DNA of 64,000 bases from an uncultured Chloroflexia bacterium (GTDB lineage: Bacteria; Chloroflexota; Limnocylindria; Limnocylindrales; CSP1-4), in the NCBI GenBank assembly GCA_963712745.1, contig CAVQJC010000001.1, positions 160,001 through 224,000 of the forward strand. Direction: 5' to 3'. The notes below the pieces were generated by a model that was given only the letters and a program-made list of their open reading frames with translations, was not told the DNA's origin and made no database searches. The first letter of the stretch is position 1; every line of letters begins with the position of its first letter. Shown here in pieces: positions 1 to 58,422 of this stretch. The translations under genes and the position numbers were made by a program.

Positions 1-15
1 CCTCCTCGTCGGCAG

Positions 16-209
16 ACGGCGGCTCAACAACGCGAGGCGGCGGATCTACTGGAGCTGGCCCCGACCGACCGCATCCAGTCGGTCACGGATGCTGAAGACG
101 GGGTTGCCCAGAGTGGCCTGGAGTCGCCCACAGAGGGCATCCCACGAGGGGATGGTGGCTCCGGGCGCGCCCGGAGGGATTTCGAACCCCGACCAATCGG
201 CCCACAGCC
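16..209 (+). repeat. att-like unit A: integrase C-terminal tail + conserved arm + degenerate antisense tRNA 3' half
   Basis: Frame from 16 reads TAAQQREAADLLELAPTDRIQSVTDAEDGVAQSGLESPTEGIPRGDGGSG, matching unit B. TGGCTCCGG at 156 and CGACCAATCGG..ACAGCC at 190-209 match the antisense tRNA-Asn at 58348. Confidence 0.85.
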
Positions 210-7863: not shown

Positions 7864-8249
7864 TGGTGGATGAGAACTGTCGCACCCCAATCGTCCGCAT
7901 GTCAAGCCCACCGCGTGAGTTCAGGCATTCGGTCGCAAACCAACTGCGTGGGCGCCGTGTCGAAGCCGACACTGATAGAGAGATTCTCGTGACTGATCTT
8001 CTCATTCGCGCAGGTCGCCTCGGGGATTCTCCCGGTGCTGATGGGGACACCATCAAGCAGACGGCTACCGGGGAATGGGAACCCCCGCAACGGCAAAGCG
8101 CATCGTTGACACCGTGCGGAATTGGCTCTGCGAGGAGCGGCGGGCCAGAGGGCTAGCTCGGCCAAGGCTTCGGCGAATGGTCGATTCGCCGGAGCGGGAG
8201 TGGGCAACCCTGAGCGATGCCCCCAACGACCACCCCGAGTTTGCGAGTC

Positions 8250-8472
8250 CAGACGATGGCTCGCTACACCCACATGACCGCCGCACAGCAGCGCGACGTC
8301 GCCGACCTCCGCGACCAGGCGCTGACTGGCGAAATCAAGCCAATCACGAAGTCAGTCAGGGGACGCGGAAACGCGGTCGCCGAACGCGGCATGGAAACGC
8401 CCACACAGGGCGTCCCACGAGGGGATGGTGGCTCCGGCGGAAGGCTTCGAACCAGCGACCGACCGGTTGACA
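8250..8472 (+). repeat. att-like unit B: tyrosine-recombinase C-terminal remnant + arm + degenerate antisense tRNA-Asn 3' half
   Basis: QTMARYTHMTAAQQRDVADLRDQALTG resembles the catalytic-Tyr tail of tyrosine integrases. 8429-8472 matches the tRNA antisense at about 37/44 nt. Confidence 0.88.
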
Positions 8473-8633
8473 TGGCCGCCACGAGACGGATCCCTGAAGA
8501 GACCGCGCCGGACAGCACGCTCTTGGGCCGCGCTTTGCCGCAGGTGAGAGTGGTCGACGCTGCCTTGGAAGCTGCGAGGCAGCCAGGCCAGCTCGGGCTG
8601 TGGTGTCACCCCGGTTCGCTACGGGAGCGAGGC

Positions 8634-9364
8634 TCAGGCGCGCTGGCGGAAGACGTTGAACGTGAAGCGGTCGTAGCGGTGGTAGTCATGGGAGAAGATG
8701 ACCACATGTCCGTCCACGTCGAGATTGCGATGCACCAGCAGGATCCACGGTTCGCTGGTCCGCTTGCCGATGGCCTGCTGGCCGGCCTCAGGCAGGAGTC
8801 TCGACGCGCAGCTGCGCGATCGCCGAGGTCACACGCGTGCCCCCGGCCTCCAGGAGCTCCAGCAGCGAGCCTGACCAGTCGACGTCATCGACCGGCCCGG
8901 GTATGAGGTCGCGAGGGATGACATCCATCGAGTAGATGAGCGGCTCATCGCCATGACGGCGAACCCGCTCCAGTCGCACGACCGAGTCCGCCTCCGACAG
9001 TCCGAGCGAGGCAGCTTCTTCCGCTCGCGGTCGTCCGACGCCTGACGGACACGACCTGGTTCACGACCGAGTAGCCGAGGGCGTGCATCATCTCGGTCAC
9101 GCTCTCGAGCCGCGTGATGGGTCGATCGAGTGTCGCGACCTGGGAGACGTATCGTCCGGATCCGTGCCGGACGTGCACCGTGCCGTCCTGCTCGAGGAGC
9201 TTGAGAGCCTCGCGGGCTGTGGTCCGGCCCACGCCGAAACGGTCGGCGATGGCCACCTCGCTGGGCAGACGATCGCCGGGCCGCAGTCCGTCCTGTTCGA
9301 TGATGGCGAGGATCTCCTCGCGGAGCTGGATCGGTAGCGGACGACGATCTCGACGCATGCTCAT
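8634..9364 (-). pseudogene. GntR/HutC-family regulator (wHTH + UTRA) with several frameshifts
   Basis: PGDRLPSEVAIADRFGVGRTTAREAL..HGSGRYV. UTRA pieces (RLERVRRHGDEPLIYS; FSHDYHRYDRFTFNVFRQR*) lie in different frames. Confidence 0.85.
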
Positions 9365-26795: not shown

Positions 26796-27515
26796 TCAGG
26801 TGGAGTACGGTCCACGTCGACCAGGCGTCAGCTCCGTCCGGGCAACAGGAGCGAAGGTCTCGAGCGCTCGGGGCATAGGGAGTCGCGCCTCCTCGATGAG
26901 ATAGCCCAGCCGCGCCGCCGCCGCCTTGCTGCGCAGCAGCGCCGCTTCAGCGGCTGTCTCGACATCCCGGGGTGCCGGCTGCACCAGCACCTCGGGGAGC
27001 AGCGTACGGTGGGTCATCCACTCGGGTTGTGCGAGCCCATCGACCAGGGCCTGCGCGGGGGTCGCCAGTGAGACCTTGTAGCCGTCGCGCAACGTCGTGT
27101 TGAACCCGGCCCTCGCGAGCCTGCTCGTTGCCATCCAGACCGCTCGAATCGTGGCGCGCCCGACCGTGACCGACTTGGTCTTCTTCCGGACGACGACCGT
27201 GATGACCGGCACTGGCTGGTCGATCAGTCCCTCCGCCTCCAAGGCAGCGTCCGTCGTGATGTAGTGCACCGCGTCTCTGAAGATGGCATCGGCGACCACG
27301 AGTGACGGTGGTTCTCGGGACGGATCGACCACCTGCCACAGACCACGGGCGAGCTGCCTGACCCTACCGGCCTCAGCTAGCCGCCGCAGGCACGTGGTGT
27401 TCTCGTAGCCCGGTGGCAGCAGCTGCGAGCGAACCTCGAGCCAAGTCGCGGAACTCGTGTCGATCACAGGGATTCGCTGACGCAGATACCAATCCGGAAC
27501 GTCGGCGCAGCTCAC
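26796..27515 (-). CDS. Type IV toxin-antitoxin AbiEi-family antitoxin
   Basis: LRRLAEAGRVRQLARGLW, YITTDAALEAEGLIDQ, ATPAQALVD, ARLGYL. Possible premature TGA before WRVYGW. Confidence 0.78.
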   Translation of the reverse strand: MSCADVPDWYLRQRIPVIDTSSATWLEVRSQLLPPGYENTTCLRRLAEAGRVRQLARGLWQVVDPSREPPSLVVADAIFRDAVHYITTDAALEAEGLIDQPVPVITVVVRKKTKSVTVGRATIRAVWMATSRLARAGFNTTLRDGYKVSLATPAQALVDGLAQPEWMTHRTLLPEVLVQPAPRDVETAAEAALLRSKAAAARLGYLIEEARLPMPRALETFAPVARTELTPGRRGPYST

Positions 27516-27815: not shown

Positions 27816-27864
27816 TGTCTCATAACATTGACATAACGCGATGTTGTGTCTAATCTATGAGACA
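27816..27864 (+). promoter_or_regulatory. hipBA promoter (TTGACA-N17-TAATCT) framed by an inverted repeat; probably leaderless
   Basis: -35 at 27828-27833, -10 at 27851-27856, IR TGTCTCATA/TATGAGACA, ATG at 27864. Confidence 0.75.
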
Positions 27865-28169
27865 TGAAGAAGTCGAAGCCACTCTACCCACGGCAACAGC
27901 GCGCGGCTTCAGAACTGGGCGCGCGGCTTCGACTTGCCCGAGAGCGCCGACGTATGCCCGCAGCGGAGCTCGCGGAGCGCGCCGACACCTCTCGGATGAC
28001 GATCTACCGCCTCGAGCACGGCGACACGAGTGTCAGCCTCGGCGTGCTCGTGCGGGTGCTTGGCGTTCTCGGGCTGGTCGACGACCTCGGTGCAGTCGCC
28101 CGGGACGACGTCCTCGGCCGCCAGCTTCAGGACGCCGCCCTGCCGCGTCCCTCGCGGTCGTTGCGCTGA
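27864..28169 (+). CDS. hipB: XRE-family HTH antitoxin (HipB-like)
   Basis: LGARLRLARERRRM..ELAERADTSRMTIYRLEHGD. Coupled to the downstream hipA by TGATG. Confidence 0.87.
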   Translation: MKKSKPLYPRQQRAASELGARLRLARERRRMPAAELAERADTSRMTIYRLEHGDTSVSLGVLVRVLGVLGLVDDLGAVARDDVLGRQLQDAALPRPSRSLR

Positions 28170-29425
28170 TGTCGAGGCTGGAGGCTGCCACCGTCTTCCT
28201 CGACGCACACGACCTCGGTCCGTGCCGCGTGGTCGGCACACTCCGGCCCGCCGGCCGTGCGCCCGACAGCCCGATCGGCTTCGTCTACGCCGCGGAATGG
28301 TGGTCCGAGCCCGCCGCGTTCCGGCTCGACCCGAGCCACTACGAACAGACCGTACAGCCGCAGTATCCGGAGCCGGGTCACGGACTCGCGCCCGTGTTCT
28401 CCGACGCCTCGCCTGACCGATGGGGGCGACTCCTGCTCGACTACCGGGAGCAGGACCGGGCAAGGGCAGAGGGTCGACGGCCCCGGCCGCTCGGCGAGTG
28501 GGACTATCTGCTCGGCGTCAACGATGAGCTTCGCATGGGCGCGCTGCGCTTTGCCGCGCCAGCAGCAGGTTCTCCGTTCCTCGACGACGGCCCGGGCTCC
28601 GTCCCGCCGCTCGCGGACCTTCGGGAGCTGGAACAGGCAGCTCGGATCGTCGACGACCCGGGTCATGATGATCCGTCCGCCATCCGCGACGCACTGCGGC
28701 CTCTTCTCGCCCCCGGCAGCCCGATGGGTGGTGCCCGTCCCAAGGCGAACTTCCTTGATCCTGCAGGCGCGCTGTGGTTCGCGAAGTTCCCATCGCACAA
28801 CGACCGCAGAGACATGGGCGGATGGGAATACGTCCTTAATCGCCTCGCTGCAGATGCGGGAATCGACGTCCCGGAGGTCGACCTTCGGATGTTGTCCGGG
28901 CCGTACAACACGTTCCTCGCGCGTCGCTTCGACCGAGAGGGGAACGGCCGACGTCTGTTCGCGTCGGCCATGACGATGCTCGGCAAGCGGGACCGTGAGC
29001 CATCTTCCTACGCCGAGATCGCCGAGGCCATCGACCTGAACGGGGCAACCGGTCACATCGAAGAGGATCTCGCCCAGCTGTTCCGCCGGCTCGTGTTCAA
29101 CATCGTGACCGGTCATCGCGATGACCATCTGCGCAATCACGGATTCTTGCGGGCCCCTGCCGGATGGCGTCTGGCTCCCGCCTATGACCTCAACCCGATG
29201 CCCGAGATGTCGCAACACGAAGTGGCTGTCGGGCTTGCGACCAAGGGCCCCGATGTCGAGGTTGCCGTCAGCGAGACCGCGCCGTTCTGCCGGCTGACCC
29301 CGGCCGCGGCTCGCGACATCGTGAGCGAGGTCCGTTCCGCGGTTGCAGAGTGGCGATCGGTCGCGCGCGAGGTGGGCCTGTCCCGCATGGACATCGAGGC
29401 GGTGTCGCCGGCATTCGACGAGTGA
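28169..29425 (+). CDS. hipA: HipA-family Ser/Thr kinase toxin
   Basis: SPDRWGR, GSPMGGARPKA, AKFPS, RRFDR, DDHLRNHGF, LAPAYDLNP. Confidence 0.95.
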   Translation: MSRLEAATVFLDAHDLGPCRVVGTLRPAGRAPDSPIGFVYAAEWWSEPAAFRLDPSHYEQTVQPQYPEPGHGLAPVFSDASPDRWGRLLLDYREQDRARAEGRRPRPLGEWDYLLGVNDELRMGALRFAAPAAGSPFLDDGPGSVPPLADLRELEQAARIVDDPGHDDPSAIRDALRPLLAPGSPMGGARPKANFLDPAGALWFAKFPSHNDRRDMGGWEYVLNRLAADAGIDVPEVDLRMLSGPYNTFLARRFDREGNGRRLFASAMTMLGKRDREPSSYAEIAEAIDLNGATGHIEEDLAQLFRRLVFNIVTGHRDDHLRNHGFLRAPAGWRLAPAYDLNPMPEMSQHEVAVGLATKGPDVEVAVSETAPFCRLTPAAARDIVSEVRSAVAEWRSVAREVGLSRMDIEAVSPAFDE

Positions 29426-29578
29426 GAGGCCCAAGGCGTCGTGCCGCAACCGCGACGACCGTCCTTGTCGCACATGGGGACAGGTCGAGCACGAACCCGG
29501 GTCAAGTCCAGCAGGTTGTGTAACGGCGACGTGGCATGTCCTGGGACTTGACCTCGACGTCCTCGACCAGTGGGCGAC

Positions 29579-29718
29579 CAGTCAGGCACGCAGTCAGTCA
29601 CGGAACCCGAAAACGCGGTCGTTCGGAGTCGGACGGAGTCGCCCACAGAGGGCATCCCACGAGGGAAAGGTGGCTCCGGCGGTAAGATCCGAACGTACGA
29701 CCGATCGGTTGACAGCCG
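29579..29718 (+). repeat. att-like unit C: arm + degenerate antisense tRNA-Asn 3' half
   Basis: 29579-29684 matches 56909-57014 at about 99/106 nt. 29671-29718 matches the tRNA antisense at about 43/48. Confidence 0.92.
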
Positions 29719-38539: not shown

Positions 38540-38595
38540 AACCTACGACCAATCGGTTAACAGCGTCCACGCTCGCGACCACATGGCTAGCAGCC
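38540..38595 (+). repeat. Tandem att-like sites: a perfect 25-nt tRNA-Asn fragment plus a degenerate copy
   Basis: 38540-38564 AACCTACGACCAATCGGTTAACAGC is identical to 58369-58393. 38576-38595 is CGACCACATGGCTAGCAGCC. Confidence 0.85.
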
Positions 38596-38695: not shown

Positions 38696-39409
38696 CTACC
38701 GTGTGGACAGGCGGCCCAGTGCAACCCGGCCATCGGCTGCAGCGGGGATCCCCACCCATGCTTCGTGGCCTGGATCTGTCAGGACGGACTGCCTGCGCAA
38801 GTAGCCGCGCTCGCGGGAGGTCAGCTCTTCACGCATGGACCCGGGGTCGGGTACCAACACCAGCAGCCGCGCGAGATCACGGTGGTCTCGAGTCGTCCGC
38901 GACGGTGAGGTGGCGGCACGGGCCTTCATCACGATAGCCCCCGCGAGCGACGGGACCGGCACTTCGAACGTGATGTTTTTGGCAGAGACAGTCACGGTCC
39001 GTTTCCGCTGGAGGGCTTGTCTGCCGCCGGGGGCCTCGATCGTCTCGCCGGGTGGAACCGTGACGATGTCTGCTCGTTCGCCGAGATGGTCGGGCGCCAT
39101 CACATCAACGCTGTCCGAGCCACGTACGAACCGGTAGGTGGCCTCCGTCTCTCTGCTCGGCTCGTACCCCACCTCGACCAAACGCTGCGCCGCGACGCGC
39201 GGAGAACTGAAGACCCCGTTGACGCCCACGACGATGTCGACGTCGGTGGTAGTCCTGCCTACGATCCCGCCGAACTCGGCCTCGAGAACAGCGACCATCT
39301 GACCGCCGACGAGCACCCAGTCGACGTCCGCCAGAAGTCCGCACACCTCAGCGGTGGCTGCCCACAGGCGCTCGTCCTGGTCGGTCAGGACCGGGACCGA
39401 GATGCTCAG
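38696..39409 (-). CDS. Nucleotidyltransferase-fold putative toxin (AbiEii/MenT-like); start uncertain
   Basis: WVLVGGQMV, RTTTDVDIV, MKARA, RDHRDL motifs. Coupled to the upstream HTH gene. Confidence 0.7.
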   Translation of the reverse strand: MSISVPVLTDQDERLWAATAEVCGLLADVDWVLVGGQMVAVLEAEFGGIVGRTTTDVDIVVGVNGVFSSPRVAAQRLVEVGYEPSRETEATYRFVRGSDSVDVMAPDHLGERADIVTVPPGETIEAPGGRQALQRKRTVTVSAKNITFEVPVPSLAGAIVMKARAATSPSRTTRDHRDLARLLVLVPDPGSMREELTSRERGYLRRQSVLTDPGHEAWVGIPAAADGRVALGRLSTR

Positions 39410-40089
39410 TGCTCGTACTCCGACAGGACCGCCTCACCGACCGATCGAGCCCTCGGGTCGCGATCGCTCGCGAGGTCTAGTGCGACTGCCGATCGCGGGG
39501 CGATGGGCCGGGCCTTCCACTGATGGCCCAGGTCGGGAAGTTGGCGGAGGACTGCATTCCCCTCGCGGCTTGGCTCGAGTGCGTATTTGCCGACAAGGTC
39601 ACGGATCCTCTCGGCCGAGGCATACGCGTCGAGTCGATCGGGATCCGTGAGGCCCATGGACAACTGCGCGGCAGCAGACCCCCCTGAGAGCATCAGGTCT
39701 GGCTCTCGTGCCAGCCGGGCGATATCGGACGGATGGGCTCGGTACCTGTGAGGTTGACCGCGCGTATCCAGGCGTGATGACAGCTCGTTGATCGACCGAC
39801 GCTTCAGGTGCGAGCGCAGTTTGCTGACGCTGACGTTGTCGAGCCACGGCGCGCCGAGGCCATCCGCTAGGAATAGCAGGCCCCAAGCACGCGCAGGTGA
39901 AAAGTGTCTTCCGCTCTTGACCCTGCTTCGGGCACGGTCCTCCAGGGAGGCGACGTCCACGACCCAACTGTTGCCGATCCGCTGAGCTCCAAGCCTTCCG
40001 TCAGCTATCAGCATGAGGACCCGTCGATGAGTCAGACCGAGCCTCTCGGCCGCGTCTGAAACACTGATGACGCGCTGCTTGTTTGCCAT
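39406..40089 (-). CDS. Excisionase-like HTH protein with AbiEi-like C-terminus (putative antitoxin)
   Basis: ISVSDAAERLGLTHRRV..GRLGAQRIGNSWVVD, SGGSAA, AVALDLASDRDPRAR. Confidence 0.72.
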   Translation of the reverse strand: MANKQRVISVSDAAERLGLTHRRVLMLIADGRLGAQRIGNSWVVDVASLEDRARSRVKSGRHFSPARAWGLLFLADGLGAPWLDNVSVSKLRSHLKRRSINELSSRLDTRGQPHRYRAHPSDIARLAREPDLMLSGGSAAAQLSMGLTDPDRLDAYASAERIRDLVGKYALEPSREGNAVLRQLPDLGHQWKARPIAPRSAVALDLASDRDPRARSVGEAVLSEYEH

Positions 40090-40093
40090 GTCA

Positions 40094-40145
40094 ATTGCCT
40101 CAACCATTCCTATAAGAGAATAGTTGTGGCAATCATGGGTGTCAA
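40094..40145 (-). promoter_or_regulatory. Promoter TTGACA-N17-TATTCT overlapped by a 40-bp imperfect inverted repeat
   Basis: ATTGCCTCAACCATTCCTATAAGAGAATAGTTGTGGCAAT at 40094-40133. -35 at 40140-40145 on the minus strand. Confidence 0.7.
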
Positions 40146-40207
40146 GGCTCGGGACGGGCGTTCGACCGTATCGCACCTCTTGACACTTGCGAGATCGTTC
40201 GATCGCA

Positions 40208-40250: not shown

Positions 40251-40429
40251 GGGGTCGAGGAACTCTCCGAGCGTGCGGAAGAGACCGCGCAGCGGGCTCG
40301 TCTAGCTCCCCTATCTGTCAGGCTGAGGTGCGCATTCGGGTGGAGCTATCTGGCTAGGAACCGGCCCGCGGCCAGCAACAGCCTCTGGCGCCCCGGTACC
40401 CGGACCCACCCGGCGAGGCCGCCGTCGGG

Positions 40430-40570
40430 CCGATAGCGCCCATGGCGATGGGCCGCCTCGACGAAGGCGTGCATGTTGTCGGCCGGCGTCTCGGGCGGCA
40501 GAGCGCAGCCGTGCCCGATGGTGAGCCCGCCACCGGGCGCAAGCACCGACAGCTCTTCGCGCACTGGCTC
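40430..40570 (-). pseudogene. C-terminal remnant of a URO-D/MtaA-family gene
   Basis: VREELSVLAPGGGLTIGHGCALPPETPADNMHAFVEAAHRHGRY parallels the tail of 54970-56002 (..GPGCALGPETPADNIHALIEAARKYGTY). Confidence 0.8.
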
Positions 40571-40726
40571 GATAAGGCCGTCACCCACGCTTGGGCTAGC
40601 GATCGTTCGGTGCGTCCGGCGCGAGGTGGATGGGGAGGAGACGACTTGAGTAGCGGGGTCAGCTGTCGCCTTTGAACAGTTCGCCGAGTGCGGCGCTGGT
40701 CGGCGGAGACAGAAGCCGGTACCCCA

Positions 40727-41792
40727 TCAGCGGACCTCGCCGTCTTCGTCGATACCATTGATGCGGTCGCGATCGTCGTACGCCACGGCGATGAGGCGCG
40801 ACTCGAGCCTGCCCTCCGCGGGGAGGGTCACGGCGCTGCCGTTGTCGATCGCTTCTAGCAGCCCAGAGTCTGGCCAGCTGGTCCACGGCTCGAGCGCACA
40901 CGTGTACTCGCGGCCCCACCAGGGTGCATCCGGCTCTCCCCCCCACACCTGCCAGAACCAGAGGTACGGGAAGAGCGACGCATCCCACCGCAGTCCGAAG
41001 CCGACTCGCTTTCGGCCGCTGGTGATGCCGTACCAGCCCTCGTCGAAGCCACGAAGACAGACCCACTCGGAGCGACGGGCGTCCACGGACGGCACCACAC
41101 TGAGGTCGAGCGTGCCGCCATCGGCCAGCCGGGCATGGGGCCAGCGGAACTCATGGTCGAACTCAAGTGTGCTCGTCGGCAGCGGGCCTGATCGCCGCGT
41201 GCTCCCCTGGCATTCGGGCAAGTCGATGCGGCAGCTGTCGTCGAGGAAGGGTGCCCCGAACGCCGGGTGCTGCCCCCACATCAACTGGATGGGCACCATT
41301 GAGAGGTTGTTCACTGTCTCGTCGATGATCAGCGCAGACGATCCCGCACGAAGCGACAATCGCTTCTCCACCCGGAACGGCGTGAGCGGGGTCTCGACAG
41401 ACAGTGCGATCGTGACTAGCTCGGGCCTGTCGACCTCGACAACGGCATTCCAGCGGGAGGACCATAGCTCACCGTGGAATGGGGTACTCAGCACCGCGGT
41501 ACGTGACGCCCGGGCCGCCGTTGGGCAGGCATTCCTGCCAACCGCCCTCCCACTCGTCGAGGAAAGCGAAGACGCCCGAGGCTGACCGGCGACCGCCCGG
41601 CATCGGTGGCTGCAGTCCAGCAGAGCTTCGCCACAGGAAGTCCGTATCGGATGGCTTGTGCACGAAGGACGTGACATCGGAGCCTTTATCCGGCAGAAGC
41701 TCCACCCGGACCACCTCGTTCTCGAGTGAGAGGACGCGGCGGCCGGCTTCGACGTAGTCGCGAATCCGAGCGCCGAAGTGACGCGCAACCAT
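40727..41792 (-). pseudogene. Aldose-1-epimerase/DUF4432-family protein, frameshifted near 41485
   Basis: LENEVVRVELLPDKGSD, GGWQECLPNGG, then PFHGE, MWGQHPAFGAPFL, ALEPWTS in another frame. Confidence 0.83.
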
Positions 41793-42427
41793 CAGATGCT
41801 CATGCCCAAGGCACGTTGCACCACGTCGACGGCCCGAGCCGCGTCGGGCGCAAACCCGTCCGCACCGATCTGCCTCGCGTACTCCTCGGTGACCGGGGCG
41901 CCACCGACGACGATCTTGGTGTCGGCGATGTCGCTGGCACGCACCGCATCGACGACATCGGCCATGGCAGTCATGGTCGTCGTCAACAGGGCCGATAGAC
42001 CGATGACGGCGGCATTGTTCTCGCGGGCTGCGTCGACGAACCGTTGGGCCGGGACGTTCGTGCCCAGGTCGACGACTTCGAGGTTGGCGCCCTTCCACAT
42101 CATCGAGACAAGGCCCTTGCCGATGTCGTGCAGGTCGCCCTGGACCGTTCCGATTACGACTGTGTGCACCGGCTGGATGCCGGATTCGACGAGCGCCGGC
42201 TCGAGTTCGGCGAGCGCCTCTTTCATGGCTCGCGCCGCGATGAGCATGCCCGAGACGTAGACGTCTCCGGCCTGGAAGCGATCGCCGATTGCGGCCATGG
42301 ACGCGGTCATTGCGCCCAGGATCTCTGGGGCAGGGTAACCCTCCGCGAGTGCTTCACGGGTGAGCGACCGCGCGGCATTGGCGTCGCCGTCTTCGATGGC
42401 GGTGCCCAGTGAGGCGAGATCGGTCAT
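41792..42427 (-). CDS. Corrinoid (B12-binding) protein, MtaC/MttC-like
   Basis: B12 cap domain plus GTVQGDLHDIGK (DxHxxG), SALLTTTM, VGGAPVT. Confidence 0.95.
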   Translation of the reverse strand: MTDLASLGTAIEDGDANAARSLTREALAEGYPAPEILGAMTASMAAIGDRFQAGDVYVSGMLIAARAMKEALAELEPALVESGIQPVHTVVIGTVQGDLHDIGKGLVSMMWKGANLEVVDLGTNVPAQRFVDAARENNAAVIGLSALLTTTMTAMADVVDAVRASDIADTKIVVGGAPVTEEYARQIGADGFAPDAARAVDVVQRALGMSI

Positions 42428-43635
42428 GGCGTTGTGCTTCTCCCTTCGTATGCCTCGATCAGGTACTCGTATACCTCGCGCGGGCTGTCGGTGCGGCGAT
42501 CGGGGACCGGCTCATACCGTCCGTCCGCAAGCAGGCCGAGGATGGGCGAGTAGTCCTGCAGGAAAGCGACCCCTCGCAGCTCGATCGAGTCCGCCATGCG
42601 GTCGAAATACGATCGGTAGTCGAGCGGGGTGAAATCGCCGATGAAGAGCACCAGGCGGTCCTTGACACGCTCGTGCAACTCCACCAGTGCATCAAAGTCG
42701 TGCAGGGTGAACACGTTCAGGCCCTTCAGCCCGTCCATGGCTAGGAAGCTTTCGGCGTGATGGCTAGCGTCGCCGCAGTAGTGGACGATGCCGCCATCGA
42801 ATGCTTTGAGGATGCGGGAGTTGTAGGGCACCACGTACTCGCGGTACAGGTCGGCGTCGATGAGGACGGCGTCGTCGTCGGACAACCACACTCCGATGTT
42901 CTCGCCGGTGTACATCGACTGGTTGGCGATGCAATAGCCGGGAGGATCACCAATCACTTCTTTCTGGGCCTGGACCCAAGTGATAAGACCGTCGGTGATG
43001 ATGTCCATCAACTGGTGCATGGCCACCGGGTCATCCATCATGAGATAGATGAGTTTGTCGTAGCCCATCAACTGGTTGGCGGTCGTGAGCGGACCCTGGT
43101 GGTCGGTGAAGCCGACCGGCAGGTCGCTGTTCTCCTTCATGTAGCGCAGGTACTCGAGCACGGTGGGCATCAAGCCATCGCGCTCGGGATCTGGGACACG
43201 CAGTCGGCGGATGTCATCCGGACCCTGCACGGGGTAGTACGTGGGATCAGCAGCCGGATCCTGGCCGGGGTGGAACTCCACGCGACAACCGAAGGCGGAG
43301 GCCGCCACGACCGTGCCGAACCACGGCATCAGGTAGGGCACCCAGTCGTCGTCGACGTTGCGGAGATGGTTCAGGTACCAGCGCTCCTGGGCACTGACTG
43401 CCGCGGCGGGGTCGGTATAGAACGCATCCGGGATGGTCTCCGGCGCATGCCCGAATACCCAAGCCACGGCGTCGGTCACCGAAGCGACTGGCCGCTCGAG
43501 GGGCTCGAAGGCGAACACCGCGTCCATGCGTGGTTTGGTGCGAGCGAGCCGCTCCTCGTACCGGCGCCGCAGCTCGGCACGCTCTGCCGCTTCGAGCGGC
43601 ACCCCGTAGTCCTGCTGGTCGTTTGGATGGTTCAT
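42424..43635 (-). CDS. URO-D/MtaA-superfamily protein (putative methyltransferase)
   Basis: ASAFGC, DPERDG, TDHQGPLTTANQLMG, LSDDDA, YREYVVPY, HYCGD. Confidence 0.8.
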   Translation of the reverse strand: MNHPNDQQDYGVPLEAAERAELRRRYEERLARTKPRMDAVFAFEPLERPVASVTDAVAWVFGHAPETIPDAFYTDPAAAVSAQERWYLNHLRNVDDDWVPYLMPWFGTVVAASAFGCRVEFHPGQDPAADPTYYPVQGPDDIRRLRVPDPERDGLMPTVLEYLRYMKENSDLPVGFTDHQGPLTTANQLMGYDKLIYLMMDDPVAMHQLMDIITDGLITWVQAQKEVIGDPPGYCIANQSMYTGENIGVWLSDDDAVLIDADLYREYVVPYNSRILKAFDGGIVHYCGDASHHAESFLAMDGLKGLNVFTLHDFDALVELHERVKDRLVLFIGDFTPLDYRSYFDRMADSIELRGVAFLQDYSPILGLLADGRYEPVPDRRTDSPREVYEYLIEAYEGRSTTP

Positions 43636-43705
43636 TTGCGTTTGGTCCCTCCCTGTCGACGGCCTCGTTGGTTCCGTACCTTGCCGCCGACCTCCATGCC
43701 ACATG

Positions 43706-44590
43706 TCATCCGGCGAACTCGTTCGTGGCCAGTCCTGTGACGCCGGGCCGACAGACGAAAGTGGCGCCCGCGAGCGGCTGGTCCCGAAGGGCATCGGCAT
43801 CCAAGGCATACGCTGCGGACGTGATGTATAGATCCCCGAGGTCAGGACCACCGAAGCACACGCTCGTCGGCTGCTTGACTGGGAGGCCGATGCTGCCCCG
43901 CAGAACACCGTCGGGCCCGTAGCAGCGCACTTCGCCTCCGTAGAAGAGCGCCACCCAGACATTGCCCTCTGCATCGACTGTCAATCCATCTGGCATTCCC
44001 TCGTCCTGCGCGAACGTGACGAGCCGGGATGGTTCACCGAGTGCACCACTCGTGGCGTCAAACGGGAAGGCATCGATCGCGTAGTTGCCCGAGTCGATGA
44101 AGTACATGACGTCGCCGCTGGGGCTCCAGCCCAAGCCGTTGGCGATCGTGAGGTCGGGGAGGACGCGAGTCACCGAGTGATCCACGTCCACGCGATACAG
44201 GGAGGCGGCGCCCGCCGCGAAGTCGAACGACATCGTCCCCGCCCAGAGCCGGCCCTGCGGGTCGCACTTGGCATCATTCATCCGGTTCCCGGGGTTGTCA
44301 CCTTCGATCGGGGCGAAGATCCGAACGGCGCCATCGGAGTCTCCAAGGAAGCCGATCCCGTCCCGCATGGCGACCACGAGCCCACCCTGAGCTCGCGGGA
44401 TCACAGCTCCCACTTCCTGACCAACGCTGATCGTGTCGAGCGATCCACTCGCCGGATCGAGGCGGTAGATCAGCCCCGGCGACACATCCACGAACAGCAA
44501 CGTGCCGGTCCGCGCATCCCACGATGGACCTTCGCCCACGTCGGCACCGACCTCAGCGACCGGGGCCACCTTCACATCGTCGAACACCAT
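43706..44590 (-). CDS. SMP-30/gluconolactonase family sugar lactonase
   Basis: GEGPSW, RMNDAKCDPQGRLWAGTM, ANGLGWSP, PDGLTVD. Confidence 0.93.
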   Translation of the reverse strand: MVFDDVKVAPVAEVGADVGEGPSWDARTGTLLFVDVSPGLIYRLDPASGSLDTISVGQEVGAVIPRAQGGLVVAMRDGIGFLGDSDGAVRIFAPIEGDNPGNRMNDAKCDPQGRLWAGTMSFDFAAGAASLYRVDVDHSVTRVLPDLTIANGLGWSPSGDVMYFIDSGNYAIDAFPFDATSGALGEPSRLVTFAQDEGMPDGLTVDAEGNVWVALFYGGEVRCYGPDGVLRGSIGLPVKQPTSVCFGGPDLGDLYITSAAYALDADALRDQPLAGATFVCRPGVTGLATNEFAG

Positions 44591-55019: not shown

Positions 55020-56002
55020 CCGGGTTCCCGTAGATCTACACAACTTCCTGCCTGCTGCGCAGGCATTTGGACGCCCGTTCACGGAGACGTTCAGGGACGG
55101 GGAGTTGCTGGCCCAGGCCATGCTGGACGCGTGGCGCGAGTTCGGCCACGACATGATCCTCCTCGAGAACGGGACCGGCTGCAATGCCGAGGCCTGCGGG
55201 GCCGAGGTCAGCTATCGCGATGATGCCTCGCCCGTGGCCGAGAAGCCGCTCATCTCATCGCTCGACCAAGTCGCAGATCTGGTCGTGCCGGACCCTGAGA
55301 CGACCTTCCCACAGAATGAGATCCTCAAGGCCACGAGCGATCCTGTCCAAGGAAATCGGGGACCAAGCCTGGATCGTGGCGCGAGCGGACCAGGGACCGT
55401 TCGACCTTGCCGCCCAGCTCTTCGGGATGGAGGACCTGATGATGGCCATGGCCATGGGCGAGACCGAGGGCGTGAAGACGCTGCTCTCCTACTGCCGTGA
55501 GGTCACCACTCGCTACGCCTACGCATTGCTGGACGCAGGCGGTCGCTCGACGTCGATCGGAGAGCCGGTCTCCGGTCCCGGCCTCATCTCGCCGAAGGAC
55601 TACCAGCGCTTCGCGATGCCGCAGCAGCGCCAGCTCGTGGAGGACGTCACAGCCCACGGTGGCATCGTCGCTAACCACATCTGCGGCGACACGATCCCGA
55701 TCTTCGACGACTTCATGGCCACAGGTGCCCAGATCCTGGAGATCGACCACGTCACCGACAAGCAGGCGGCCAAGGACCTCGCTCGTGGCCGCACCTGTCT
55801 GCTCGGTACGCTCGACACCAACACCATCACCATGGGCACGCCCGCCGAGGTCGAGGACGAAGTGCGTGAAGCGATCGCCATCCTGGCACCCGATAGCGGC
55901 TTCATCATCGGTCCGGGCTGCGCGCTCGGGCCGGAGACCCCGGCGGACAACATCCATGCGCTGATTGAGGCTGCGCGCAAGTACGGGACCTATCCAGTCT
56001 GA
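54970..56002 (+). pseudogene. MtaA/CmuA-type (URO-D superfamily) methyltransferase, frameshifted near 55335
   Basis: MNSIERV..PDRVPV, AEACGA, then QGPFDLA, HICGD, GPGCAL (complete HxC..C zinc motif) in another frame. Confidence 0.85.
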
Positions 56003-56171
56003 CCCGGTCACGGCGAGAGGACTGCTCACTCGGCAAGTCAGTCGGCAGGGCCAGAGCGATGGAACTCACGCCTAGGATGCGAAGACTGCTCCCGTCAATC
56101 AACCTCGACCGGCATCAGCTCGGCGGACCCATCCAGGTTCGGACAATCTGCAAGGAGGAGGGACACGATCC

Positions 56172-56804
56172 ATGGCTGACCTGACCGCACTGACCGCGGC
56201 CGTCGAAGCGGGCAACCGGGCCGAGGCGGTGAGCCTCACCCAGGCCGCCATCGACGCGGGTACCCCACCCCAGGAGATCCTCGACGCCATGACGACGGCG
56301 ATGACCGAGGTCGGCCGCAAGTTCGCCTGCAACGAGGGCGTGTACGTGCCCGAGATGCTCATCAGCGCCCACGCCATGAAGGAAGCCAGTGCGCTGCTCG
56401 AGCCGCTGCTGGCCGCCTCGGGTATCAAGCCCGAGCACACCGCCGTCATCGGCACGGTGCAGGGCGACCTCCACGACATCGGCAAGAACCTCGTGGGCAT
56501 GATGCTGAAAGGCGCCAACTTCGAGATCGTGGACCTGGGCACCAACGTCAGCCCCGAGGCCTTCGCCGAGGCGGCGGTGGAGCACGGCGCCACCATCGTC
56601 GGCATCAGCGCCCTGCTGACGACCACGATGGTGGGCATGAAGGCCGCCGTGGAGGCCATCCGGGCGGCCGACCCCAAGGCCAAGATCCTCGTCGGCGGGG
56701 CGCCCGTGACCGACGAGTTCGCCGCCGAGATCGGCGCCGACGGCTTCGCCAAGGACGCCGCCACCGCGGCCAACGTGGCCCAGGCACTGCTGGCGGCGCG
56801 GTAG
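56172..56804 (+). CDS. Corrinoid (B12-binding) protein, second copy
   Basis: GTVQGDLHDIGKNLV, SALLTTTM, VGGAPVT. Strong RBS AAGGAGG. Confidence 0.95.
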   Translation: MADLTALTAAVEAGNRAEAVSLTQAAIDAGTPPQEILDAMTTAMTEVGRKFACNEGVYVPEMLISAHAMKEASALLEPLLAASGIKPEHTAVIGTVQGDLHDIGKNLVGMMLKGANFEIVDLGTNVSPEAFAEAAVEHGATIVGISALLTTTMVGMKAAVEAIRAADPKAKILVGGAPVTDEFAAEIGADGFAKDAATAANVAQALLAAR

Positions 56805-56863: not shown

Positions 56864-57015
56864 CACGATGCCGCGGGTTCGCCCAGATAGGCACCAACTG
56901 GCCAAATCCAGTCAGTCACGCAGTCAGTCACGGAACCCGAAAACGGGGTCGTCCGGAGTGGGACGGAGTCGCCCGTAGAGGGCATTCCACGAGGGAAAGG
57001 TGGCTCCGGCGGTAG
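56864..57015 (+). repeat. att-like unit D (original tRNA-proximal island end): decayed integrase tail + arm + tRNA 3' end
   Basis: Frame HDAAGSPR*APTGQIQSVTQSVTEPENGVVRSGTESPVEGIPRGKGGSGG. Tandem CAGTCAGTCACG x2 at 56909-56932. Confidence 0.92.
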
Positions 57016-58346
57016 TGTCTGAGTTCAGGACATAGGTGACACCTGATAGGTCACAGGTGAGTCGGGACATCGGTGACAGTCCGGTGCATGTCGAAGCATC
57101 GGGTGGCCGTCCTGAAGGTCCTCACGCATCAGTCGTCCGTCACCGCTGCCGCAGCCGAGGTGGGCCTGAGTCGGGGCTACCTGCAGCGACTCCTGCGCCG
57201 CTGCCGCGAGGGCGGACTCGAGGCGCTCGAGCCACGGTCGCGGCGGCCACGTACCAGCCCCGGCCGCATACCCGAGGCGGTCCGCGAGCGCATCGTCGCG
57301 TTGCGCACCGAGCTCACCGCCCAGGGCCTCGATGCCGGCCCCGTCACGATCGTTTGGCACCTCGAGCGCGAAGGGCTCCGCGTGCCTTCGGACTCGACGA
57401 TCCGGCGGGTCCTCCATGCCGCGGGCCTCGTCGTGCCCGAGCCGCGCAAGCGCCCGCGCAGCTCGTGGCACCGCTTCGAGGCCACGATGCCCAACGAGCT
57501 GTGGCAGTCGGACGTGACCCACTGGCGGCTCGCCGATGGGAGCGAGGTCGAGATCTGCTCCTGGCTCGACGACCACGCCCGCTACCTGCTCGACTGCACG
57601 GCCTTCCGACACGTCGACGGTGACGACGTGGTGGCCTCGTTCTGCGCCGCGGGCGAGGCCCACGGTTGGCCCGCGGCCACGCTCACCGACAACGCCGCGG
57701 TCTACACCTCGCGCTTCACGGGCGGGCGCAACGCCTTCGAGTACCTGCTCGCCTACCTCGGTATCCAGCAGAAGAACGGGGCGCCCGGCCATCCCCAGAC
57801 GCAGGGCAAGATCGAGCGCTTCCACCAGACCTTGAAGCGCTGGCTCGCACAGCGAGCCCGCCGCACGGACCATCCCTGAGCTGCAGGCGCAGCTCGATGC
57901 CTTCCGGGCGACCTACGACGAGGAGCGTCCGCACCGGGCCATCGGCCGACGCACCCCGGCCGAGGCCTACCGGGCGAGCCCGAAGGCCCACCCCGCCGGG
58001 CGCGGCGCCCCAGGGCATCTGCGCCTGCGCTACGACCTGGTCGACAAGGGCGGCCGCATCACGTTGCGCCGGGCCGGTCGCCTGCACCACCTGGGGATCG
58101 GGGCCGCCCATGCCCGCAAGCGCGTCCTGGCCATCGTCGATGAGCGCGCGGTCACGGTCGTCGACCTCGGGACCGGCGAGGTCCTCTCAAGCCATCTGAT
58201 CGCGCCCGATCGCGACTACTGGCGCAACCAACGACGAGACCCCGGCCGGTGGCCGGGGTCCCAAGCGACTCGATGACGTCTGAGCTGGTTCATCGGTTGT
58301 CACCGATGTCCCGACTCATCTGTCACCTATGTCGCGACTCATGACA
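57016..58346 (+). mobile_element. IS481-family insertion sequence flanked by a 16-bp direct repeat
   Basis: TGT..ACA ends with repeated GACAT(A/C)GGTGACA subterminal motifs. GTGGCTCCGGCGGTAG is present at 57000-57015 and 58347-58362. Confidence 0.92.
57088..58276 (+). pseudogene. IS481-family DDE transposase, frameshifted near 57855
   Basis: PRSRRPRTSP, PNELWQSD, LDDHAR, LTDNA, PQTQGKIERFHQTLK, then YDEERPHRAI..YWRNQ in another frame. Confidence 0.9.
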
Positions 58347-58347
58347 G

Positions 58348-58422
58348 TGGCTCCGGCGGTAGGATTCGAACCTACGACCAATCGGTTAACAGCCGACCGC
58401 TCTACCACTGAGCTACGCCGGA
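58348..58422 (-). tRNA. tRNA-Asn (GTT) with encoded CCA
   Basis: TCCGGCGTAGCTCAGTGGTAGAGCGGTCGGCTGTTAACCGATTGGTCGTAGGTTCGAATCCTACCGCCGGAGCCA forms a full cloverleaf. Confidence 0.98.

Follow-up and report, generated by a model that had tools for sequence, protein, structure and literature searches.

Why does one reading frame stay open through every copy of a short repeated segment and then run into the antisense strand of a tRNA gene? The question is raised by a stretch of Chloroflexota DNA of 64,000 nt (G000:C1:160001-224000; hereafter the window), in which a conserved "peptide" recurs at a tRNA-Asn island hotspot. We consider it probable that this peptide is DNA of an attP arm, read through in the frame of an integrase that lost its own stop codon, and that the resulting protein tail is a by-product. 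The conserved peptide would thereby be explained as attP arm DNA in integrase frame.

A repeat search of the window returned two families. The first, of 107 nt, lies at 63-169, 8336-8442, 29578-29684, and 56908-57014. The second, of 49 nt, corresponds to the 3′ half of a tRNA and lies at 8428-8476, 29670-29718, and 58347-58395, always in the same orientation. ARAGORN found one tRNA gene in the window, a tRNA-Asn(gtt) on the minus strand. A decayed copy of the tRNA half is also present in unit A (~170-208), and its first 16 nt occur again in unit D (56999-57014). In all, four units within the window (A-D) and two more upstream on the contig consist of an arm of ~110 nt followed by a copy of the tRNA-Asn 3′ half. 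The features are as follows.

1-208, plus strand: unit A, comprising the remains of the C-terminal integrase helix (..RRQTAAQQREAADLLELAP..), a single 12-nt repeat (76-87), a spacer, and a decayed tRNA half
8250-8476, plus strand: unit B, with an integrase remnant, attP arm, and tRNA half
8250-8335, plus strand: integrase remnant of unit B, with the Tyr box (TMARYTHM) and the last helix (TAAQQRDVADLRDQALTG)
8336-8427, plus strand: attP arm of unit B, with two 12-nt repeats, both decayed (the second at 8349-8360), and a 68-nt spacer
8428-8476, plus strand: displaced tRNA-Asn 3′-half copy of unit B, antisense (att identity block), with 76% identity to the reference copy, that of unit C
29579-29718, plus strand: unit C, with 12-nt repeats at 29579-29590 and 29591-29602, a 68-nt spacer, and a tRNA half at 29670-29718
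38540-38564, plus strand: fragment E, 25 nt identical to tRNA positions 58369-58393 (from the T arm to the anticodon loop), with no conserved arm beside it
56909-57014, plus strand: unit D, with two exact 12-nt repeats (56909-56920 and 56921-56932), a 68-nt spacer, and the first 16 nt of the tRNA 3′ end (56999-57014)
57015-58346, plus strand: IS of 1332 nt with imperfect terminal inverted repeats (TGTC..GACATAGGTGACA) and an rve DDE transposase at 57073-57879 (PF00665, PF13565)
58348-58422, minus strand: intact tRNA-Asn (gtt), whose 3′ 49 nt (58347-58395) are the att identity block
58409-58411, plus strand: TGA at which the integrase frame ends, on the antisense strand of the tRNA and 13 nt past the 49-nt identity block

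All units share one orientation, and the conserved arm always stands on the 3′-end side of the tRNA copy. The first 27 nt of the tRNA-like stretch in unit B show 3 mismatches to the tRNA, where shuffled sequences are expected to give 0 matches; the tRNA half of unit A is decayed and carries a 7-nt insertion. Together with the two upstream units (C1:104862-105002 and C1:127897-128130 of G000), the array extends over about 115 kb (G000:C1:104862-218422) and has at least six arm-plus-tRNA-half units, all facing the same way and all lacking an intact integrase. Its segments are bounded by direct repeats of the tRNA 3′ half with the intact tRNA at one end, the arrangement that marks tRNA-integrating islands.

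The initial annotation had translated the units in a single frame and placed the end of that frame at 58409-58411. We reproduced both the translations and the in-frame TGA, and every unit could be read in the same frame. Unit B (frame 8253) gives TMARYTHMTAAQQRDVADLRDQALTGEIKPITKSV..TPTQGVPRGDGGSGGRLRTSD, unit A (frame 1) gives TAAQQREAADLLE..QSVT..ESPTEGIPRGDGGSG, unit C gives QSVTEPEN..GIPRGKGGSGGKIRTYDRSVDSR, and the intact tRNA reads GSGGRIRTYDQSVNSRPLYH*. The amount of integrase left ahead of the arm varies from unit to unit. Among the window units, the Tyr box is kept in unit B alone; nothing is left upstream of it, in-frame stops stand at 8154 and 8211, and the ORF that covers the unit (8217-8906) has no Pfam match. 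Upstream of unit A the genome sequence closes the frame, and the neighbors, judged by their translations, comprise a small unrelated ORF and a large one that resembles a sugar enzyme. The upstream unit at C1:127897-128130 keeps a longer, stop-broken integrase remnant (C1:127567-127896; ..GAHPRVAQELLRHASES*MTMQVHAHVTAARRREAADLLE..). In unit C the integrase is deleted entirely and a HipA-type gene abuts the unit. This HipA-side junction adjoins an intact tRNA-Asn in two genus-mates (G228 and G380, loci L012 and L015), so the deletion there is old and shared. The islands had been said to have lost the integrase, and this is the case: none of the 67 window ORFs scanned matched PF00589, and the intact 425-aa integrase described below had no match in G000 at E <= 1e-60.

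The in-frame stop of unit D had been put down to a decayed tail, but its actual source is the IS at 57015-58346. The IS sits 16 nt into the tRNA copy and is flanked by a 16-nt direct repeat (GTGGCTCCGGCGGTAG), which means that unit D was formerly contiguous with the intact tRNA. With this 16-nt duplication, the tRNA-Asn stays whole despite an insertion 16 nt inside its 3′ end.

The sole other copy of the IS in G000 (C6:227555-228764, 89% identical) likewise has tRNA-3′-end-like flanks (TGGTGGCGCCCC..GGATTCGAATC) with a similar duplication, and a terminal fragment of the same IS stands at the matching position of the upstream unit C1:104862-105002 (from C1:105003 onwards). The IS looks like one that targets tRNA 3′ ends and makes an unusually long duplication.

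Intact relatives of the integrase were found in other Chloroflexota genomes. A word-indexed search with the 74-aa tail of unit B against longer proteins gave 153 candidates, none at E <= 0.01, which is weak evidence. In a six-frame search of 401 genomes from the order, 33 matched the tail of the upstream unit. In one of these, G125, the match was the end of a 433-codon open frame that encodes a 425-aa protein from the first Met, and this protein carries PF00589 (E 2.1e-15). The 425-aa integrase had matches at E <= 1e-60 in 8 of the 401 genomes, in 5 of them at tRNA-Asn. Across 34 aligned homologues, R204, K242, H314, R317, and H340 were invariant and Y351 nearly so. The intact relatives thus have the PF00589 catalytic domain with the R-K-H-R-H/W-Y residues that mark a tyrosine recombinase; the window itself does not, and the element is a PF00589 member through its relatives only, since the window holds just remnants. 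The proposal that the tail peptide is the C-terminus of a tyrosine recombinase was confirmed in this way, by full-length homologues that carry PF00589.

We examined a structure model of the G125 protein (AlphaFold). The catalytic domain is modeled with confidence and its last confident helix spans residues 356-370; residues 374-412 and 418-425 have pLDDT < 50. At the N-terminus, residues 5-55 form a three-stranded sheet and a helix, and no arm-binding family of Pfam matched the protein. Foldseek matched the fold to the Tn1549 and lambda integrases, with full-length lambda Int chains aligning over 371-378 columns. After the last helix the G125 frame has no stop; it continues for 53 further codons (..DAALADDPLTVTVTVTEPADGVVESGMEGPGEGDPERENGSGGRTRTYDQAVNSRPLYH*) to the TGA inside tRNA-Asn.

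How general this ending is was assessed in the best 120 of 215 homologues. Sixty of these stop at most 28 aa after the catalytic Tyr, typically 22 aa after it, in the form Y[AST]HV[TS]AAQ[QE]REAADLLERAVAG (..LLERAVAG), 16 stop after 29-60 aa, and 4 are cut. The ending ..PLYH (..NSRPLYH), 69-79 aa after the Tyr, was found in 34, and their tails come in seven lengths (69, 71, 72, 74, 75, 76, and 79 aa). Four more read into a tRNA with another end, and two pass the arm and then diverge. The expectation that full-length homologues would show no stop before the tRNA therefore holds in the tRNA-Asn clade, which ends at the TGA, and fails in the wider family, given the 60 early stops among these 120. 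In three of the four with another end (P0009, P0033, and P0041), the tRNA variant lacks the TGA, and the frame goes on as ..PLYQLSYAG.. or ..PLYRLSYAG..; at locus L053 the frame also runs through a tRNA variant that lacks the TGA. The end is thus set by the tRNA and not by the protein.

Two integrase-bearing loci depart from this pattern. In G256, an intact 390-aa integrase (73% identical) adjoins the same arm and tRNA-Asn, and its linker is 1 nt shorter, with a TGA stop in repeat 1. On contig C17 of G109, one extra base near the tRNA makes the frame end as ..ECWLRR* 11 nt into the tRNA. An independent case of reading into an antisense tRNA is a 34%-identical homologue at tRNA-Lys (L101).

A search of the genome contigs for related loci with the 425-aa integrase returned three loci, two of them useful. 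The metagenome matches listed were mostly distant homologues, with L050, L053, L068, L089, and L091 the close ones among them.

Two further arrangements were seen in this material. At L050, a metagenome contig, and in P0083 and P0088, the frame crosses the arm, diverges after ~12 nt of the tRNA end, and terminates as ..GSGGPDLPAY*, ..GSGGPDPHAY*, and ..GSGGPDPPAY*, respectively; these ends could reflect an insertion at the tRNA 3′ end or another form of junction. At six metagenome loci with distant homologues (L055, L056, L059, L060, L062, and L073; 38-42% identical), a tRNA-Arg(cct) follows the Tyr codon at ~145 nt and points the same way as int, the reverse of the arrangement in the tRNA-Asn clade.

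The arm itself has a regular layout. Two 12-nt direct repeats (CAGTCAGTCACG) stand at a fixed 68 nt from the tRNA end, and tandem 12-nt repeats follow directly after the last helix in every lineage. Units C and D and several relatives have two copies of CAGTCAGTCACG, G125 has the pair GACAGTCACC/GACAGTCACC, and G248 has two copies of GAGAGTCACGC; as peptide, the pairs read SVTQSVT, TVTVTVT, and SHAESHA. Between lineages the two copies co-vary, as paired binding sites for a protein would be expected to. A 43%-identical integrase beside tRNA-Thr also carries a pair of its own, GCAGGGGTCAG, which in this case follows the stop codon. In 30 aligned arms, the 68 nt from repeat 2 to the tRNA end are almost without indels, with gaps of 1-2 nt read from the alignment in 5 of the 30 rows (L006, L024, L029, L048, and L053); the stretch from the helix to repeat 1 takes up the changes in arm length. 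Conservation within the arm is highest in ..CCACGAGGG.., a block immediately past the tRNA end that includes a short inverted repeat, CATCCC/GGGATG. The 12-nt repeats are candidate arm-type sites for the N-terminal domain of the integrase. Such a role would agree with attP layouts in the literature, in which attP is described directly downstream of int in actinomycete elements (PMC2440964) and a common core of 30-45 bp is described as flanked by pairs of putative arm-type sites (PMC10865867).

These observations suggest how the array may have formed. The units would be the right ends of successive, now decayed integrative islands in the 3′ half of tRNA-Asn, each made up of the 3′ end of int, the adjoining attP arm, and the tRNA half carried by that island. 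Each new integration would push the older unit leftwards, and the old half would be displaced to the far end of the element; the order of the integrations is the one that the arrangement suggests. Members of the family usually end ~22 residues after the catalytic Tyr, and the tRNA-Asn clade lacks that stop. Because the arm is GC-rich and of fixed length, the frame would then stay open through the arm and the antisense tRNA as far as the TGA. In an intact gene, a tail of ~53 aa would be translated, as a by-product of attP DNA and not as a selected part of the protein. The units have a constant geometry and a fixed spacing, the frame is open in the relatives, and a coding signature is absent (see below); we infer that the repeats serve as arm sites and that the tail is neutral.

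A different account, which we regard as unlikely, is that selection keeps the stop-less frame open: the integrase would carry a disordered tail of ~53 residues whose last residues are swapped by recombination, so that its stability or activity depends on the state of the element. If true, this would be a second, integrase-borne form of integration-dependent control, and the stability or activity of the integrase would indicate whether the element is integrated or excised. In its favor, 38 of the best 120 of 215 homologues read into the tRNA. The integrase frame is also stop-free in 27 of 30 arms (over the 111 nt before the tRNA), compared with 13 of 30 and 20 of 30 for the other two frames and with a fraction of 0.31 for shuffled arms. 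This excess and the seven in-frame tail lengths would fit selection for an open frame of free sequence, as in a disordered linker. However, the weight of both points is limited because the arms are related to one another, a protein query in that very frame is what brought up most of the loci, and remnants are equally stop-free: counted from the arm rows, the frame is open in 13 of 14 remnants without an integrase and in 14 of 16 integrase-linked arms.

We compared codon positions between the arm and the adjoining coding sequence, taking for the arm the 70 columns free of gaps that separate repeat 2 from the tRNA and setting the phase by the tRNA; the few close metagenome loci make this a small sample of DNA, with only ~six distinct integrase-bearing loci. 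In the 16 integrase-linked arms, the differences at codon positions 1/2/3 were 0.41/0.46/0.44 and GC3 was 0.61. The 14 remnants gave pairwise differences of 0.34/0.30/0.30 and the same GC3 of 0.61. In the adjoining helix (Tyr to ..AG, 12 loci), by comparison, pairwise differences were 0.21/0.17/0.56 and GC3 was 0.78. The equal differences across codon positions and the low GC3 of the arm indicate that the tail evolves like non-coding DNA of fixed length, with no coding signature. The other evidence against a selected tail comes from the structure model, in which the tail is predicted to be disordered (pLDDT < 50), and from the relatives: at the same site one intact integrase stops in repeat 1 (G256) and another is out of frame (G109:C17), the tail is absent from most of the family among the best 120 of 215 homologues, and the frame runs right through some tRNA variants (P0009, P0033, P0041, and L053). 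The directionality or stability switch proposed in the initial annotation finds no support in these data.

The same holds for the residues that recombination would exchange. The TGA lies 13 nt past the identity block, which ends at ~58396, so the P-L-Y-H codons and the stop are chromosomal and must differ in the excised form, where the frame would run into the element's other end. For the G125 and G256 elements, no second tRNA-half copy was found in the ~9 kb left on each contig, and we approximated the excised end by displaced junctions of other loci. Three such junctions in three genomes (L002, the C1:128 kb unit of G000; L025; and L027) share the ending ..SRRAGR(S/A)S*, their stops coinciding in position; in units B and C the frame continues in another way. 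Both the position of the TGA beyond the identity block and this shared stop count in favor of a selected tail. It had been claimed that the C-terminus differs between the integrated and excised states, and literally it does, but the difference amounts to only ~4 versus 7 residues (..SRPLYH* versus ..SRRAGRSS*) of an unconserved tail and lends no support to a switch.

There is a precedent for such control in the mycobacteriophages BPs and Brujita, where attP is described inside the repressor gene and integration strips the repressor of a C-terminal degradation tag; Int in these phages also has a C-terminal tag for proteolysis (PMC3694055). Our locus resembles that integration-dependent immunity in form, with an att site inside an ORF and C-termini that differ between integrated and excised states. 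In contrast, the gene split in those phages is the repressor, which loses a functional tag, whereas here the overlapped gene is int, with ~4 codons beyond the block and no coding constraint.

Less probable still is that the arm serves the tRNA gene, as a 3′ trailer, terminator, or processing signal, and that the open frame is irrelevant. Arms without an integrase are indeed far commoner than the integrase (tail matches in 33 of 401 genomes, integrase at E <= 1e-60 in 8 of 401 and at tRNA-Asn in 5), and the best conserved part of the arm, with its inverted repeat, lies just past the tRNA end. Nevertheless, the intact tRNA of the window now has IS DNA rather than the arm directly 3′ of it, the displaced units A, B, and C keep the arm without a functional tRNA, and arms co-vary with the integrase lineage. 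Finally, we rejected chance as the source of the shared frame: although shuffled arms are stop-free over 37 codons 31% of the time and the window has many long spurious ORFs, it is highly improbable that high G+C produced the frame in units unrelated to any integrase, because the Tyr box and last helix of a PF00589 family are present in unit B and in the upstream unit, and because five other genomes have the arm directly joined to an intact integrase gene.

With the tail read as a probable by-product of attP DNA, the system works like the tRNA-integrating tyrosine-integrase elements that have attP next to int. It shares with the actinomycete ICEs of the pSAM2, SLP1, and pMEA300 type a tyrosine integrase, an attP directly downstream of int, and an identity segment at the tRNA 3′ end; in elements of that type, att identity is reported to cover the tRNA 3′ end, and the tRNA is rebuilt on integration (PMC2440964). 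It differs from them in its Chloroflexota host and in that the integrase of the tRNA-Asn clade, lacking its own stop, reads through the arm into the tRNA. As in the SSV1 type, the att site overlaps the integrase ORF. Archaeal integrases of the SSV1 type contain attP inside int, and integration splits the gene into two parts. Here, in contrast, the catalytic domain stays whole and only the end of a non-conserved tail changes: the identity block starts 53 codons past the last conserved helix, and only PLYH and the stop lie beyond it. The lambda sib element acts at the RNA level. The present locus is like sib in that att lies just downstream of int and the sequence 3′ of int differs between prophage and excised DNA; sib retroregulation is mentioned in the survey of Panis et al. 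(PMC2951348). That survey describes a class with convergent int and tRNA in which the integrase promoter is clear of the att region (PMC2951348). We assign our locus to this class, as int and the tRNA converge; the relevant part of the survey concerns promoter overlap and not read-through of an ORF into the tRNA. A literature search that left subscription journals mostly outside its reach returned no published account of an integrase ORF reading into an antisense tRNA.

The array shows islands piling up at one tRNA, with the integrases lost and the arm beside the tRNA surviving. The relatives define a Chloroflexota integrase clade together with its target tRNA, a 49-nt identity block, and candidate arm sites. 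They also call for caution in annotation, as about one-third of the family's database entries (among the best 120 of 215) carry a tail of ~53 aa that is attP plus antisense tRNA and not a domain.

A family scan of the 67 window ORFs found that the islands carry sugar ABC transporters, ROK kinases, pairs of URO-D-like and B12-binding genes, HipA, and AbiEi; no conjugation or replication genes were left among them. The HipA-type kinase gene that abuts the arm of unit C (27857-29422, plus strand) has an AbiEi-like antitoxin gene near it (26796-27512, minus strand). Fragment E, which has no conserved arm, is probably the att remnant of a different element. About 0.9 kb away lies an ORF with an excisionase-type HTH_17 domain (39406-40173, minus strand; PF12728), and fragment E may stem from an element of another kind that used this tRNA as its att site. 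The island that separates fragment E from unit D has two sets of URO-D-like (MtaA-type) and B12-binding-domain genes (40346-43974 and 55184-56804), possibly island-borne corrinoid methyltransferase systems.
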